64,000 nt of DNA, from NCBI GenBank assembly GCA_002009975.1, contig MTLP01000042.1, positions 273,917-337,916 on the forward strand. The letters run 5' to 3'. This DNA is from Thermococcus sp. JdFR-02. Lineage in GTDB: Archaea > Methanobacteriota_B > Thermococci > Thermococcales > Thermococcaceae. This document shows positions 9,245 through 38,175 of the stretch, one piece after another. Under the pieces are notes generated by a model. That model saw only the letters and a program-made list of their open reading frames with translations, did no database searches and was not told the DNA's origin. A program made the position numbers and the translations under genes. How positions within the stretch are numbered: position 1 is the first letter of the stretch; each line of letters starts with the position of its first letter.

Positions 9245-9322
9245 GCCCCGGTGGTGTAGCCCGGTCAAACATGCGGGCCTTTCGAGCCCGCGCCCCGGGT
9301 TCAAATCCCGGCCGGGGCACCA
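9245..9322 (+). tRNA. tRNA-Glu (anticodon TTC)
   Basis: GCCCCGG/CCGGGGC acceptor stem, CGGGC-CT-TTC-GA-GCCCG anticodon arm, GGTTCAAATCC T-loop, encoded CCA, no intron. Confidence 0.97.
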
Positions 9323-10877: not shown

Positions 10878-10951
10878 GTGTATTTTTACCTTCTTCAGGT
10901 TGATAAGAATTGTGCCTAAAACTTTTTAAAGGACTAAAATACACTCGCTAA

Positions 10952-11012
10952 GGGCGATGGCGTCCGCCCGGGCTTCGAGCCCGAACCGCCCGTAAGGGCT
11001 GATGACGCCTAT
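10952..11012 (+). ncRNA. Fluoride riboswitch (crcB RNA motif)
   Basis: GGGCGATGGCGTCCGCCC...AACCGCCC-GTAA-GGGCTGATGACGCCTA matches the crcB consensus; GGCGTC/GACGCC pseudoknot; lies upstream of an operon containing crcB. Confidence 0.95.
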
Positions 11013-11037
11013 TCTACAACTCCTTGGAGGCGGTAGA

Positions 11038-32589: not shown

Positions 32590-33285
32590 ATGAAAGAAAA
32601 GACAGTTATTGATAACATTTTCTCCTTATTTGATGAAATAGTAAAGGGAGACAGTATAGTATTTGAATATTCTTGTCCTGAGAGATTACCTTTAGGAGTA
32701 TTATTGTTGAGTATTTGGACAAAAAAGAAAGGATATCCTTTATTAATTAACGAAACTATAGATCTCCTTCACGTTTATAAGAAAAAATTAGAGCTCAATG
32801 GAATTGATACATGTTTTATAGATAATGCCCTTGTTATCAAAATTGGTGGAGTTATAGAGACTGGAAAAGTCATTGCAAGGGTTCCTATTGAGCCCGATGC
32901 GATTGTTCTTTTAAGAAAACACCTAAAGATATACCGCAGAGTGCTGGAAGAATACAAGTTTGTCATAAATGTGTGGCTAGATTTTCCCGAATTAATTTCC
33001 ATGTGCTCTGGAAATACAGACTGTGAATATACCTTATTCAGCAATGTTGTGAGATATATTGGAGATAAACACAGAATATCATTCTACTTCATTCCTCCAA
33101 ACCTAGATAGAAGTGCACAATTCCTAAAGAGAGTTGCAACAAAGATCCTGCGTTTAATTGAGATCAAAGAGGGAGAGTTTATGTTGGAGCTGGAAAATCC
33201 TGTGTATGGAACGAGTAAGCATGTCAAGTTTACTTCAGTCGATATCATGGAATATCTCGAGAAAGAAGGGTTTTTGAAAGAATGA
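32590..33285 (+). CDS. DUF257 family protein (inactive RecA-like fold)
   Basis: GDSIVFEY, VIKIGG and GDKHRISFYF motifs. Confidence 0.7.
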   Translation: MKEKTVIDNIFSLFDEIVKGDSIVFEYSCPERLPLGVLLLSIWTKKKGYPLLINETIDLLHVYKKKLELNGIDTCFIDNALVIKIGGVIETGKVIARVPIEPDAIVLLRKHLKIYRRVLEEYKFVINVWLDFPELISMCSGNTDCEYTLFSNVVRYIGDKHRISFYFIPPNLDRSAQFLKRVATKILRLIEIKEGEFMLELENPVYGTSKHVKFTSVDIMEYLEKEGFLKE

Positions 33286-34626: not shown

Positions 34627-35391
34627 ATGGAAGATTTCCTTCATTTTAATCATCTTTTTGTGGGAATAGGTAACAACGGTTCTCGTATCGTTAAGAATCT
34701 GAATATTAAGAATGCTGGGAGAGTTGTAGTCGATCCAGCAGATTACATCCTAAATAGAAAGGAGCTTATTAGAGATATAAAGGAATTTTTTGGAAAATTA
34801 GATGACAACACAATAGCTTGGTTTTTGTTTGAGAACAAGCCCATCAATATAGAAATCTCGAAGCAAATTAATTATTATACCCCAAGCAAGGTAATTAGAC
34901 TGGCGTATGTTCTAACTCCACATACCGAGCTTGTTGAAATGAATAAGCCAGAATGGGCAGATATGTTTGAAACCGTATTTTATGATTCCCTCAGAGAGCT
35001 TTTGAAAGAATATCAAGAGATACCCTTAAAAGATGCCTTTGAAATGGCGAGCAGATATATAGGTGGAATGTTCTCCAAGCTTTACTATTATCTTGAAAAT
35101 GACATGCTCATCAATGTTGATTATGCTGATCTGTTTGCTATGATAAAAGGAAGAAATGTTGGGATATTAAGGATACTTAATAAAGTTGATTTTGATTGGA
35201 ACTGGGGAATTTGGGAGAGAGGTCTCATAAACATTAGAGCTGGAAGACGCGTTCCATTAAGCAAAGCCCATTTAATTCTCAATAGATTTCAAGATCTTTT
35301 AAGCAAAAAGGATATCATATGGGGAGTTCAGATAGATGAGGAAGTCGAGAAGGATATCGAAATATTAGCGCTTTTAGTTAAGAGGTGGTGA
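34627..35391 (+). CDS. Divergent FtsZ/tubulin-like protein
   Basis: VGIGNNGSRIV, LINVDYADL and IIWGVQIDEEVEKDIEI resemble FtsZ T1, T7 and C-terminal strands; no GGGTG(T/S)G motif. Confidence 0.6.
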   Translation: MEDFLHFNHLFVGIGNNGSRIVKNLNIKNAGRVVVDPADYILNRKELIRDIKEFFGKLDDNTIAWFLFENKPINIEISKQINYYTPSKVIRLAYVLTPHTELVEMNKPEWADMFETVFYDSLRELLKEYQEIPLKDAFEMASRYIGGMFSKLYYYLENDMLINVDYADLFAMIKGRNVGILRILNKVDFDWNWGIWERGLINIRAGRRVPLSKAHLILNRFQDLLSKKDIIWGVQIDEEVEKDIEILALLVKRW

Positions 35392-35392
35392 A

Positions 35393-36037
35393 ATGAGAGC
35401 AATATTTTTTGACATAGATGAGACTCTCTTGAGTGAGAGACCTTTAATCATGCTATTTTTGCCTCAAGTTTACACAGAACTTTCAAAAAGATTGGGAATA
35501 CCTAAGGATAGCGCTAGATTGAAATTTTTAAAAGAACTCATGGAGCGCAGGAATACTTATGAATGGCATGACTGGAACTTCTTCTTTGAACTTTTTGGAA
35601 TTGATATTAGGTATGAAAACTTACTAAAAGCGTATCCCCACAAACTTCATGTATTTCCAGACGTTAAGCCAACACTAAAGTGGCTTAAAGAAGAAGGATA
35701 TAAGCTCGGTATAATAACAAGTGGTCCAGAATATCAAAGGTTAAAACTTAGATTAACGAAACTCGATAAATATTTTGATATCATAGTAACAAGGGAAGAT
35801 GTAAAAACTGTGAAGCCAGATCCCCTAATATTCCTCTACGCATGTCAAAGAATAGGGGTTGAACCACAGGAAACTGTCATGATCGGAGATAATCTGCAAC
35901 AAGACGTTTTGGGAGCAAAGAACTCCGGAATGATAGGCGTGTGGATAAATAGAAATGGAGATGAAGATTATCACTTTGCTGATTATGAGATAAAAACCCT
36001 TTATGAGCTAAGAAAGATTTTAGGTGGTGCAAAATGA
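35393..36037 (+). CDS. HAD-superfamily hydrolase
   Basis: FDIDETL, ITSG, KPDP and GDNLQQDV motifs. Confidence 0.92.
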   Translation: MRAIFFDIDETLLSERPLIMLFLPQVYTELSKRLGIPKDSARLKFLKELMERRNTYEWHDWNFFFELFGIDIRYENLLKAYPHKLHVFPDVKPTLKWLKEEGYKLGIITSGPEYQRLKLRLTKLDKYFDIIVTREDVKTVKPDPLIFLYACQRIGVEPQETVMIGDNLQQDVLGAKNSGMIGVWINRNGDEDYHFADYEIKTLYELRKILGGAK

Positions 36038-36213
36038 AGGAGATATACAAAAACGAGGGGATTTTCTATGAATATAAGAAGGAAAAAGTAAAGCTTGAAA
36101 ATGGAGATGAAATTATCCATAAGCAAGAGAGACCTACAAAGCTTTGGTGGGAACTTAAAGAAGCTATAAAAGGCAAAAAAGTTAAAATAATCGTCTATGA
36201 ACTTGGAGAATGA
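36034..36213 (+). CDS. Small hypothetical protein (59 aa)
   Basis: MKEIYKNEGIFYEYKKEKVKLENGDEIIHKQERPTKLWWELKEAIKGKKVKIIVYELGE; ATGA overlap with the HAD gene and a GGTGG RBS. Confidence 0.75.
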   Translation: MKEIYKNEGIFYEYKKEKVKLENGDEIIHKQERPTKLWWELKEAIKGKKVKIIVYELGE

Positions 36214-36229
36214 CCTTTCTGGTGATTCC

Positions 36230-36691
36230 ATGAAAGTAGTCTATGAGAAAGAAATCGATGCAAGTAAGATAGTGGTATCACCGAGACCAGTTTGGAAGTG
36301 TAAGGCTTGTCCAATGTATGGCAAAAATCCCTCTTGTCCACCTTATGCTCCACCTTGGCAAGAAGCTAAAGAATGGATCAGGAATTTTAAAAGGGCTTTG
36401 GTAATAAAGTTTGAAGTTGATTATGAGAACTTTGAAACGGAAAAGAGAAAGGCTCTTTTATACCTATTAAGAAAGGAAGAAGAACTATTTAGGAATGGAA
36501 ATTTCTATGCATTCGCTCTTTTTCCTGGAAACTGCAATCTCTGTGAAGAGTGTGAGTTTCAAAAAAGTAAAAAATGCGTAGAGCCAACAAAAGTTAGGTT
36601 TTCTTTATGTGCTGTTGGAATTGAAATAAAGTCATTTGCTAAGGTAAATTTTAGCGAAAGCGTTTTGTATGGGATAATACTCATTGATTAA
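36230..36691 (+). CDS. DUF2284 metal-binding protein
   Basis: CKACPMYG..SCPP, GNCNLCEEC and RFSLCAVGI; start after GGTGA. Confidence 0.85.
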   Translation: MKVVYEKEIDASKIVVSPRPVWKCKACPMYGKNPSCPPYAPPWQEAKEWIRNFKRALVIKFEVDYENFETEKRKALLYLLRKEEELFRNGNFYAFALFPGNCNLCEECEFQKSKKCVEPTKVRFSLCAVGIEIKSFAKVNFSESVLYGIILID

Positions 36692-36703: not shown

Positions 36704-37174
36704 ATGAAAGCGTACATAACCATGCTTGGTCGCTCAACATGGGCAATGATTAATGCGTATTATGCAATTGTAATGCACAAAAAATATCGTCCAGATGAAA
36801 TATACATCTTTTTAGAGAATATTTACATTAACAAGCTTCCAAAGGCTATTGAGGCTTTAAAAATAATCTCTAGAGCTTTTGGATTTGAGCCGAGAATAAG
36901 CTATGAAATAATTGAAGAAGCAAACTTTCTAGAGGCTGATAAAAAGATTGGAGACCTTTTAAAAGAGCTTAAGGAAAAAGGTTATGAGATAACGATTGAA
37001 ATAACCTCCGGAAGGAAAGCGTTAGTTGCAGGGGCTTTAATACACGGTGTTCCATTAAAAGTCAATCACGTTTTTTATTTAGCAATAAAAAATCTTGAAT
37101 TTGCAAACAGACCTTACATGATGATTCCCTTACAGATACAAAAGCTAAAAGATTTCATGGAGGGAAAAGATTGA
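36704..37174 (+). CDS. Stand-alone CARF-domain protein (ring-nuclease-like)
   Basis: Strand-1 YITMLGRS, PDEIYIF and strand-4 IEITSGRKAL match CARF motifs I and II. Confidence 0.75.
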   Translation: MKAYITMLGRSTWAMINAYYAIVMHKKYRPDEIYIFLENIYINKLPKAIEALKIISRAFGFEPRISYEIIEEANFLEADKKIGDLLKELKEKGYEITIEITSGRKALVAGALIHGVPLKVNHVFYLAIKNLEFANRPYMMIPLQIQKLKDFMEGKD

Positions 37175-38175
37175 AAGAAGAAATAATATCAAAGCCCGAG
37201 TTGCAACTCCTAATCAATCTCCTTCAAAGAAGTGAACTTAACGTTAGTTATCCTCTTTATGGCAATTTTCCCCTTCTAAAAGCTTGGGTAGAAGATGATG
37301 GCTACAAAATCAAAGTTTTAGCCAATGAAGGGGATTTTTCAAGAGTTCTAAGAGATAAGAGGGAATACATATATGATCTTCCAACATATAGAGATTTTCA
37401 CGAATGCTTCTTAGCAGCAGGGATTTTGCAATATGCTAATATCGATGAGTTCTTAGAGCGCTTGGAAGGGTATAAATCTTTAACAAAGGGGATTATCTTT
37501 GCTCCAGATACAAATTTACTCTATCATGCTTTCATATCCAATTTTAAACCCTTAAAGGGTTATGAAATCGTCATTGTTGATACTGTTAAAAAAGAAATTG
37601 AGAATGCCATGAACTTTAAATATAAGCCAAGTCAATTAAAAGAGCTAAGGAGAATACTGCACAATTATGAACTTTTAAATGAATTCAGCAATAGGAGAAT
37701 GAAAAAATCGAGAAAAGCTGCTTATATAGCCTTGAGAGAATTTGAAAAACTAAAGAGTAGATCGATTGAGGTAGAAAGTATAAAAGAAGAGACCCACACT
37801 AACGACGAGCTAATAGTAAAGACATTAAAAAAGTTTGACAAAGATACACCTACTTTGACTGTTCTCTTGACAGCAGATATAGTCATGACGGATATAGCCA
37901 AGCTTGAAGGTATCGAGTATTTTCTTTTTGAATATCCTCATAAAAAGCTCGATGAACTTTTTGCAACTCCTTATCAACTTCGTTCGCTGCTTTTTAACCT
38001 CGCAACTGTATTTGGCGTAGTTGAGGTGAATAAAGTTTTGATTTTTGGAGAATTTGGAGGGAAAGTTAAACTTAATGAACTAAAATTAAGGTTTCACAGA
38101 GGAGGGCTTTATGAAGAACATAAGTTCCACTTAAACATATGCAGAGAAATAATAAAATTAGGAATAGAAAGATGA
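37171..38175 (+). CDS. PIN-domain ribonuclease with N- and C-terminal extensions
   Basis: APDTNLL, VKKEIE, NDELIV and LLTAD acidic tetrad; 4-nt overlap with the CARF gene. Confidence 0.8.
   Translation: MKEEIISKPELQLLINLLQRSELNVSYPLYGNFPLLKAWVEDDGYKIKVLANEGDFSRVLRDKREYIYDLPTYRDFHECFLAAGILQYANIDEFLERLEGYKSLTKGIIFAPDTNLLYHAFISNFKPLKGYEIVIVDTVKKEIENAMNFKYKPSQLKELRRILHNYELLNEFSNRRMKKSRKAAYIALREFEKLKSRSIEVESIKEETHTNDELIVKTLKKFDKDTPTLTVLLTADIVMTDIAKLEGIEYFLFEYPHKKLDELFATPYQLRSLLFNLATVFGVVEVNKVLIFGEFGGKVKLNELKLRFHRGGLYEEHKFHLNICREIIKLGIER

Follow-up and report, generated by a model that had tools for sequence, protein, structure and literature searches.

Which signal does a CARF protein receive in an archaeal genome where no Cas10 is found, and what does it control? 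CARF domains are understood almost wholly as receivers of the cyclic oligoadenylates (cOA) that are made by Cas10, the synthase of type III CRISPR systems. The question is raised by a two-gene locus of Thermococcus sp. JdFR-02, located within a stretch of 64,000 nucleotides (nt) of the assembly GCA_002009975.1 (contig MTLP01000042.1, positions 273,917 to 337,916 of the forward strand), which is referred to as "the window" at its full length. At this locus, a gene for a CARF protein of 156 amino acids (aa) is directly followed by a gene for a PIN nuclease of 334 aa.

Our answer, to which we assign a probability of roughly 60%, is that the two proteins form a two-subunit, ligand-gated PIN endoribonuclease. 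It builds on the computed fold, on the conservation of the pocket and of the active site, on homology to fused effectors, and on the linkage and co-inheritance of the two genes. The features of the pair are as follows, in window coordinates:

36704-37174 (+): CARF gene, 156 aa, ATG start, proposed sensor subunit; from the list of open reading frames (ORFs), PADLOC, Pfam, AlphaFold2 (AF2), Foldseek and VIA
36728-36736 (+): codons G9-R10-S11, CARF pocket motif 1, in the loop after strand 1; invariant in 25 homologues
36998-37018 (+): codons E99-I-T101-S-G103-R104-K105, CARF pocket motif 2, in the loop after strand 4; from conservation and alignment to Sso2081
37109-37141 (+): codons R136-P-Y-M-M-I-P-L-Q-I-Q146, CARF C-terminal tail, predicted PIN-docking element; from conservation and the predicted interface
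37159-37164 (+): GGAGGG, Shine-Dalgarno-like, 6 nt before the PIN start codon, TTG; read from the sequence, putative ribosome-binding site
37171-37174 (+): TTGA, 4-nt overlap of the CARF stop codon with the PIN start codon; read from the sequence
37171-38175 (+): PIN nuclease gene, 334 aa, TTG start, proposed effector subunit; from the ORF list, Pfam PIN_4, AF2 and VIA
37507-37515 (+): codons D113-T114-N115, first PIN acidic residue; invariant in 26 homologues
37594-37596 (+): codon E142, second PIN acidic residue; invariant in 26 homologues
37804-37806 (+): codon D212, third PIN acidic residue; invariant in 26 homologues
37870-37878 (+): codons T234-A235-D236, fourth PIN acidic residue; T234 and D236 invariant, A235 conserved in at least 90% of 26 homologues

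The CARF protein, its pocket and the PIN nuclease

The 156-aa protein is a CARF-fold protein of the family CARF_m1. It matches the PADLOC-DB profile PDLC01971 (CARF_m1--CARF) with an E-value of 1e-74 and 247.9 bits, residues 1-155 being aligned with positions 1-154 of the 156 positions of the profile. The matches from Pfam and NCBIfam, i.e. Csa3_N (5.4e-5, 23.6 bits, under the 27-bit gathering cut-off), Cas_APE2256 (0.16) and TIGR01884 (0.0013), are all located below the curated cut-offs, and are insufficient alone to fix the family. The AF2 model, with 25 homologues in the alignment (pLDDT 90.8, pTM 0.86), is a six-stranded, Rossmann-like structure with strands at residues 2-8, 32-38, 64-70, 95-99, 122-128 and 146-150 and with helices between them; helices 12-26 and 105-115 directly follow the two pocket motifs. 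The comparison of this model with the Protein Data Bank (PDB) by Foldseek has returned top matches that are all CARF proteins (Cam1, Csm6, SiRe_0806, Csa3, Can2, Cad1, Sis0455 and Sso2081; E-values 3.5e-7 to 1.3e-4), and in the VIA structural comparison, all 50 of the 50 listed entries are CARF proteins, with Z-scores of 12.0-15.9.

A single-sequence phmmer search of the PDB with the CARF protein has returned chance matches only (a ribose-operon repressor, botulinum neurotoxin fragments and AfTRAX, with E-values of at least 0.14). The profile of the split CARF family, i.e. of the CARF proteins that are encoded separately from their PIN partner, has 9jxw (0.013) and Sso2081 (0.24) as its meaningful rows; the TAL-effector repeats that top the same search (E-values down to 2.3e-14) are taken as a repeat artefact, composed of many 4-8-bit stretches on one 60-residue segment, and serve as a caution against whole-sequence E-values on repeat proteins.

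The CARF motifs, as Makarova is said to have worded them in 2014, are a polar S/T after strand 1 and a motif of the type [DE]-x-[ST]-x-x-x-[RK] after strand 4; motifs of the CARF type are present here as G9-R10-S11 after strand 1 and E99-I-T101-S-G-R-K105 after strand 4. Among the 25 homologues, whose identity reaches down to 41%, residues G9, R10, S11, W13, T101, G103 and K105 are invariant, R104 is conserved in at least 90%, and residues P137, Y138, M140, P142 and Q146 of the C-terminal tail are also invariant; the residues of the pocket loops, together with this tail, are the most conserved positions of the split CARF family.

The pocket is connected to that of the Crn1 ring nucleases through a profile of eight fused relatives, which matches Sis0455 (4.5e-10) and Sso2081 (1.3e-9) in the PDB. 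In the alignments from this profile, the position of G9-R10-S11 in the window corresponds to G9-T10-S11 of both Sso2081 and Sis0455, and the T-x-G-R-K of the family is placed on T102-G-G-R105-K106 of Sso2081, i.e. within D-I-T-G-G-R105-K106 (alignment to 7yhl_A and 7z55). In Crn1, R105 and K106 are essential for the binding and the cleavage of cyclic tetra-adenylate (cA4), with S11 also contributing (10.1101/380436, PMC9638899); in Sis0455, D75 positions R105, and the substitution D75G abolishes the binding of cA4 (PMC9638899). The residue that is equivalent to D75 is N74 in the window protein and D, N or S across the split family, and all eight fused proteins have D there. Judged by these residues, the pocket is Crn1-like, yet not identical to that of Crn1.

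Crn1 proteins (Sso2081, Sis0455) and the window CARF have further properties in common: they are stand-alone CARF proteins of similar size, S11 and R105/K106 of the former are aligned with S11 and R104/K105 of the latter, and the VIA Z-scores reach 14.3 for Sis0455 and 13.6 for Sso2081, although by sequence the likeness is weak, as the E-value of 0.24 indicates. Their settings differ: Crn1 works alone beside type III systems, whereas the window CARF is coupled to a PIN partner and belongs to a family that is mostly found without Cas10. The C-terminal part, which is a ligand cap in Crn1, is predicted to be the PIN-docking element in the window CARF.

The 334-aa protein is, by its conserved residues, a PIN nuclease with an intact metal site. 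It matches the Pfam family PF13638 (PIN_4) at 1.6e-9 and 38.6 bits, above the cut-off of 21.9, and residues D113, T114, N115, E142, D212, T234 and D236 are invariant in 26 PIN homologues. The AF2 model (pLDDT 94.3, pTM 0.92) consists of three domains, i.e. an N-terminal domain (residues ~1-100), the PIN domain (~100-260) and a C-terminal domain (~262-334); residues ~100-260 align in VIA with many PIN domains at Z-scores of 8-12.3, including those of MJ1533, Rrp44, SMG6, Utp24, Nob1 and VapC. MJ1533 is also the only protein that phmmer has returned from the PDB, at the level of a chance match (E-value 0.096), and the NCBIfam scan of the 334-aa protein has given no meaningful match.

The frames of the two genes are separated by the TGA stop codon at positions 37172-37174, and the overlap of this codon with the start codon of the PIN gene in TTGA, as read from the sequence, couples the translation of the two genes.

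An initial annotation of the locus, made from the sequence, had described most of these features. Its call of a CARF protein with a Rossmann fold is borne out by PADLOC, Foldseek and VIA, and the two motifs that it had named, G9-R10-S11 after strand 1 and I100-T-S-G-R104-K105 after strand 4, are present, in loops placed by AF2. Its statement on S11 and R105/K106 in Sso2081 agrees with the alignment and with 10.1101/380436; its description of the protein as ring-nuclease-like holds for the aligned S11 and the R-K pair, but not for the D75 equivalent, which is N74. The TTGA overlap is confirmed by the ORF list and the sequence, and the intact acidic tetrad (DTN, E, D, TAD), with extra domains on both sides, by conservation and structure comparison.

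The split pair and its fused relatives

The best structural match of both proteins is one and the same, SiRe_0806 of Sulfolobus islandicus (PDB 9jxw, apo; 9jxx, with cA4). The CARF model (residues 1-155) aligns with residues 1-138 of SiRe_0806 (Z 15.6, root-mean-square deviation 2.4, 135 residues aligned), and the PIN model (residues 1-330) aligns with residues 152-418 of 9jxx_C (Z 16.5, root-mean-square deviation 3.5, 241 residues aligned); both alignments being to one chain, the window pair tiles the fused, cA4-bound protein. The order of the domains is also the same, i.e. CARF, linker domain, PIN and C-terminal domain, but SiRe_0806 is one polypeptide instead of two, and the sequence identity is 13-21%. 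Our literature search has found no paper on SiRe_0806.

The same relationship is found in PADLOC-DB, where the profile PDLC01973 (CARF_m1--CARF_PIN) matches both window proteins, the PIN protein at 2.6e-16 on profile positions 225-442 of 465. The identification of the CARF protein is itself not new, because CARF_m1 is already catalogued there (PDLC01971-01973), both stand-alone, as the architecture 'CARF', and PIN-fused, as 'CARF_PIN'; in these profiles, neither a function nor a partner or a context is described, and the naming is presumably that of Makarova et al. in their 2020 classification of CARF proteins.

In Thermococcales, 19 weaker matches of the CARF profile (E-values 1.6e-25 to 3.2e-12) are located at the start of frames of 346-548 aa. 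One of these 19 fused-type places, L082 of genome G014, has been examined in detail. The 494-aa protein L082 matches the PADLOC profile CARF_m1--CARF_PIN at 2.9e-198; in hhalign, it aligns with the split CARF family (99.2%, E-value 1.7e-19), including the C-terminal tail motif, which is kept in the fused homologue as 'LPLYLIPFSIQEL', and with columns 4-312 of the split PIN family (95.3%, E-value 2.2e-8). The four PIN acidic residues are kept in the eight fused proteins, as D290, E327, D389 and D413 in L082 numbering. L082 adjoins Cmr1- and Cmr2/Cas10-like genes, and 16 of the 19 fused-type places share a contig with a Cas10 palm2 match at a distance of 4-16 kilobases (kb); the place in G010 is ~950 kb away from one, and in G093 and G064 the contigs are small, and Cas10 either sits on a different one or was not found.

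The literature that we have found on CARF-PIN proteins concerns fused accessory proteins: two CARF families are fused to PIN (PMC4012209), Msed_1167 consists of CARF and PIN and ST0035 is a CARF-PIN toxin of Sulfolobus (PMC6546367), and PIN RNases are listed among the effectors that are activated by cOA (PMC12669027). Two traits of these fusions, the single polypeptide and the location beside Cmr/Csm genes, are absent from the window pair, which, by sequence and modelled structure, is the counterpart, naturally split, of the fused CARF-PIN type III effectors. In a tree of CARF domains, 25 of them split and 8 fused, three changes of the fused label are needed and well-supported branches force one; with its long branches and no outgroup, the tree supports no count or direction of fusion or fission. 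A CARF and a PIN domain also share one frame in a Methanosuratincola metagenome-assembled genome (MAG) (L069:1587-3077), either by a recent fusion through the loss of the stop codon or by an assembly error.

The prediction of a complex between the two window proteins supports the binding of CARF to PIN. The score is 0.89, and the best of three controls is 0.00; among 80 solved complexes 58 attain this mark, as do 2 among 110 mismatched pairs, counts that hold roughly here, as custom alignments were used. The runs agree in at least 96% of the contacts, with a partner pLDDT of at least 89. The predicted interface is formed by residues 12-20, 44-58 and 129-145 of CARF and residues 9-19, 40-44, 267 and 319-334 of PIN, and includes the conserved residues P137, Y138, M140 and P142 of the former and E10, Q12, N16, C324, R325 and L327 of the latter.

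The linkage of the two genes has been followed in a scan of relatives, one genome per species, which has returned 108; the locus counts refer to the best 80 loci. All 80 are archaeal, and belong to Thermococci, Archaeoglobi, Methanomicrobiales, Methanomethylicia, Bathyarchaeota, Hadarchaeota, Thermoplasmata, Promethearchaeota and genomes labelled as Nitrososphaerota. In 78 of the 80 loci, the CARF gene has a PIN homologue downstream, in the same orientation; in the two loci without it the contig ends, 110 nt after the match in L058 and after an inserted AbrB/VapC cassette in L021. The PIN gene starts between -40 and +60 nt from the CARF stop codon in 75 of the 78 loci, with a 4-nt overlapping start being possible in 44; of the other three, L010 and L015 carry ~650 nt of inserted sequence and L069 is the single ORF mentioned above, so that CARF and PIN genes are separate in 77 of the 78. 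A wider search of 1.84 billion cluster representatives has given 303 relatives at E-values of 1e-3 or lower; among the best 150 of these, most have ~150-180 aa and seven have 485-531 aa.

In two loci of Archaeoglobaceae, an AbrB/SpoVT-like antitoxin and a VapC-like PIN ORF of 136-138 aa are located exactly between the CARF and PIN genes (L010:6473-7163, L021:1123-1738), and L015, with a gap of ~660 nt, probably holds the same cassette. The insert looks like a mobile toxin-antitoxin cassette that came to be inserted at the 4-nt junction between the two genes.

The CARF and PIN genes are gained or lost together. The split CARF gene is found in 85 of 99 Thermococcales genomes (six of the others have the fused type only and eight have no match), and the split PIN gene is found in the same 85, each in a single copy; neither is found in 13 genomes, including all nine of genus g3, and a PIN fragment stands alone in G066, at a contig end. 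Two genomes keep the CARF gene next to a disrupted PIN gene, which is broken into two pieces that are ~900 nt apart in G080 (C4:70973-72909) and separated by TAA in G002 (C18:23397-24412). Five of the nine genomes of genus g3 (G006-G014) have fused CARF-PIN only, four of these five within 16 kb of a Cas10 match; as the genus has no split pair and some of its genomes have the fused form, the two forms replace one another there at the genus level. Several genomes of genus g4 have both forms. The linkage of the two genes, for which the initial annotation had asked, is conserved in 78 of 80 loci and in the agreement of presence and absence across the 99 genomes, and the formation of a complex is supported by the prediction and by the natural fusions.

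Type III CRISPR and the gene neighbourhood

Genome-wide profile searches for Cas10 palm2 (PF22335), Cmr2 (TIGR02577) and mCpol have returned no match in the window genome, whose completeness is 99.99%; as a positive control, PF22335 has matches in 6 of 14 named genomes. The matches that do occur in the window genome are located outside the window: a 238-aa frame weakly matches the Csm1 model (22.7 bits), in its HD part only, and a 453-aa frame matches SMODS below the cut-off (25.4 bits). Cyclic oligoadenylates from a distant type III locus, which the initial annotation had named among the possible messengers, are therefore unavailable in this genome. Its further statement, that no cas gene, array, cyclase or CD-NTase is located in the window, has been checked in part, since not every ORF of the window was scanned against cas profiles: it agrees with the genome-wide searches and the location of the weak matches, no CRISPR-array-like repeat has been found in the window by TRF, and the sole Cas1 of the genome is located on another contig.

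Among the 85 Thermococcales carriers of the split CARF gene, 30 have a Cas10 palm2 match and 55 have none. In Methanomicrobiales, the split CARF gene is present in 36 of 101 sampled genomes, with a Cas10 match in 3 of the 36 carriers and in 6 of the 65 non-carriers, and no Cas10 has been found in three of three further carriers, i.e. a Methanoculleus isolate, an Archaeoglobus MAG and a complete Methanosuratincola MAG. These counts are given plainly and carry no statistical claim, as related genomes are not independent. The pair is thus kept in genomes without detectable Cas10. The usual separation has an exception in G039 (C11:678253-699635), where the split pair (678253), Cas10 (693560) and a fused CARF-PIN (698244) occur within ~21 kb.

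The features that are located upstream of the pair in the window are the following:

35393-36037 (+): HAD-type hydrolase of the TIGR02253 family (181.1 bits, cut-off 169.75)
36165-36171 (+): TATAAAA, TATA-box-like, in the 160-nt gap before the DUF2284 gene; read from the sequence
36197-36691 (+): DUF2284 gene, predicted metal-binding, upstream of CARF (Pfam DUF2284, 5.7e-31)

The DUF2284 gene is separated from the CARF gene by only 12 nt in the ORF list and is probably part of one operon with CARF and PIN; TATAAAA may be the putative promoter of the three genes. The homologues of the DUF2284 protein start at the internal ATG at 36230, and not at 36197. DUF2284 is located directly upstream of CARF in 12 of the 16 loci labelled as Thermococci that have enough flank. 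In the 52 loci outside Thermococci with enough flank, the pair has a different set of neighbours: in 48 of them the gene after PIN, in the same orientation, encodes a HAD-family hydrolase, and an RNase J-like beta-CASP metallo-beta-lactamase gene ends upstream at a distance of under 150 nt in 10 and is contained in the flank in 18. No orthology is claimed between the downstream HAD and the HAD of the window (35393-36037), because the latter is only the third-best match of its own genome to the Archaeoglobus-type HAD, with partial coverage; a homologue of the beta-CASP protein, with 55% identity, is encoded on a different contig of the window genome. Set beside a defence island, RNA and nucleotide metabolism is the better fit for these neighbours, as context and not as proof.

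Other elements of the window have been identified in passing. A RuvB-like ATPase gene, assigned from reading its translation only, is also a neighbour of the pair. The 254-aa protein at 34627-35391 (+), tightly packed between an upstream ORF and the HAD gene, has weak, partial matches to the FtsZ family (TIGR00065, 7.5e-5; FtsZ_C, 0.013) and may be a short, divergent tubulin/FtsZ-like protein, and the protein at 32590-33285 (+) belongs to DUF257 ('Pyrococcus protein of unknown function', 3.1e-27). The Rfam scan of the window has returned a tRNA gene (9245-9319, +) and a fluoride riboswitch (10944-11018, +; 54.2 bits, E-value 3e-12), and nothing else.

The distribution of Cas10 bears on the alternative that the pair is a dispersed accessory of type III systems, i.e. 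a trans-acting, cA4-activated RNase and/or ring nuclease that responds to cOA whenever the host has a type III system or obtains one with a mobile element. In its favour are the cA4-binding nearest structural relative (9jxx), the Cmr-linked fused paralogues (16 of 19 fused-type places), the conserved Crn1-type residues, the hosts with Cas10 (30 of the 85 Thermococcales carriers) and the name 'CRISPR-associated protein' that some members have in UniRef. We nevertheless consider it unlikely: no Cas10 is found in the window genome, in 55 of the 85 Thermococcales, in 33 of the 36 Methanomicrobiales and in the three other carriers, the pair is single-copy and keeps a stable context (DUF2284 in 12 of 16, HAD in 48 of 52), unlike defence islands, and strong constraint on a sensor is improbable for a signal that the host cannot make.

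The neighbourhood bears on a second alternative, that CARF is a ligand-free, constitutive subunit, structural or inhibitory, of a housekeeping PIN RNase that processes rRNA, tRNA or mRNA. The RNase J-like gene upstream (10 of 52; flank 18 of 52) points to RNA metabolism, the D75 equivalent is not conserved, and no source of a ligand is known in most hosts, all of which would suit a subunit of this kind. Its probability is nevertheless low, as the pocket loops G9-R10-S11-x-W13 and T101-x-G103-R104-K105 are among the most conserved parts of the protein, which is the pattern of an occupied pocket and not of a relic; moreover, the pair cannot be essential housekeeping, because it is missing from nine of nine genomes of genus g3, from four further Thermococcales and, as far as the search for CARF shows, from 65 of the 101 sampled Methanomicrobiales genomes.

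A classical type II toxin-antitoxin system, i.e. a VapC-like PIN toxin that is neutralised by the upstream small protein and serves plasmid-addiction-like stabilisation or abortive infection, would share with the pair, as VapBC does, the order of a small partner gene and then a PIN gene, the overlapping frames, a PIN fold (VapC toxins at Z ~8-9) and the predicted binding of the partners, but is very improbable, since the upstream protein is a CARF without a DNA-binding domain, the PIN protein has 334 aa and two extra domains against ~130-140 aa for VapC, the pair is single-copy, vertically inherited to the extent that it largely follows taxonomy and co-occurs across whole genera (85 of 99 Thermococcales), natural fusions exist where a toxin and a labile antitoxin in one polypeptide are not expected, and the genuine AbrB/VapC cassettes of L010 and L021 show the look of a mobile toxin-antitoxin system at this very place.

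Proposed ligand gating and its meaning

For the two-subunit, ligand-gated PIN endoribonuclease that we favour, we infer the docking, the gating, the cleavage of the ligand and its nature as follows. In the CARF superfamily, a homodimer holds a cyclic or linear oligoadenylate in a pocket on its dyad. The CARF subunit of the pair, probably a dimer, would dock onto the N- and C-terminal helices of PIN, using its conserved tail R136-Q146 together with helices 1 and 2. A small, adenylate-type ligand would be bound between the loops G9-R10-S11 and T101-x-G-R104-K105, and its binding would reposition the PIN domains, so that RNA would be cut at the site of D113, E142, D212 and D236. Because the pocket has the S11 and R-K residues of the Crn1 type, the CARF subunit may also cleave the ligand and thereby switch itself off. 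The ligand is most likely not a CRISPR-made cOA, because no Cas10 is found in the window genome and in most carriers; it would be endogenous or otherwise sourced, the candidates being linear oligoadenylates or RNA ends with a 2',3'-cyclic phosphate, and the module would act as a chromosomal switch of RNA turnover or stress and not as a CRISPR accessory. The initial annotation had left the choice between a split sensor-effector and a toxin-antitoxin system; the former is well supported by the CARF fold, the linkage, the predicted complex and the natural fusions, and the classical toxin-antitoxin system is the weaker half of that proposal.

Several points weigh against this interpretation. One to three profiles underlie the absence of Cas10, and a divergent or unrecognised cyclase could be missed by them; in the 30 Thermococcales carriers that have Cas10, a response to cOA is possible. 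The pocket may differ from a cA4 pocket, because the D75 equivalent is N74 in the window protein and variable in the split family. Gating is uncertain even in fused forms, because ST0035 bound cA4 only weakly and showed no added RNase activity (PMC6546367). Finally, the score of the predicted complex may reflect likeness and not binding, because SiRe_0806 has been solved as a single chain.

A broader proposal, which we put forward tentatively and consider possible but well short of probable, is that the pair is a CRISPR-independent, chromosomally inherited archaeal switch of RNA decay, where CARF reads a signal of RNA damage or decay (oligoadenylates, 2',3'-cyclic phosphate ends); in many lineages a HAD phosphatase would belong to the operon of the switch, with RNase J as a neighbour. 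Type III systems would then have recruited their effector from this module by fusion, or the module would be a domesticated effector with a new ligand.

The signal of RtcR, a CARF-containing regulator, consists of tRNA fragments with cyclic-phosphate ends. RtcR is a precedent for a CARF domain that functions outside CRISPR, responding to an RNA-derived signal and regulating a bacterial RNA-repair operon (PMC7790460). The output of RtcR is an AAA+ and helix-turn-helix transcription activator in bacteria, whereas that of the window pair is a PIN RNase in archaea, and no specific similarity to RtcR has been found among the PADLOC profiles, RtcR_PspF2 having scored 0.0011 against the fused L082 only.

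The interesting part of this locus is the CRISPR-independent split operon. No description of the split operon, its co-inheritance, its retention without Cas10 or its HAD and RNase J neighbours has been found in the literature searched, which did not take in the 2020 CARF classification or supplements, so that an earlier description is possible. A strongly conserved CARF sensor with an intact, Crn1-like pocket, coupled to an intact nuclease, is widespread in Thermococci, Archaeoglobi, Methanomicrobiales, Methanomethylicia and further archaea, and in most of the carriers covered by the Cas10 searches no synthase of the signal is recognisable. The split and fused forms of the pair are a clean system for the question of how the binding of a ligand by CARF reaches the PIN active site, and the pair bears on the origin of the CRISPR accessory effectors. 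Thermococcus being genetically tractable, the question of the ligand is directly testable, and the identity of the ligand would reveal either a new source of oligoadenylates in archaea or, after RtcR, a second CARF that reads an RNA-derived cue.

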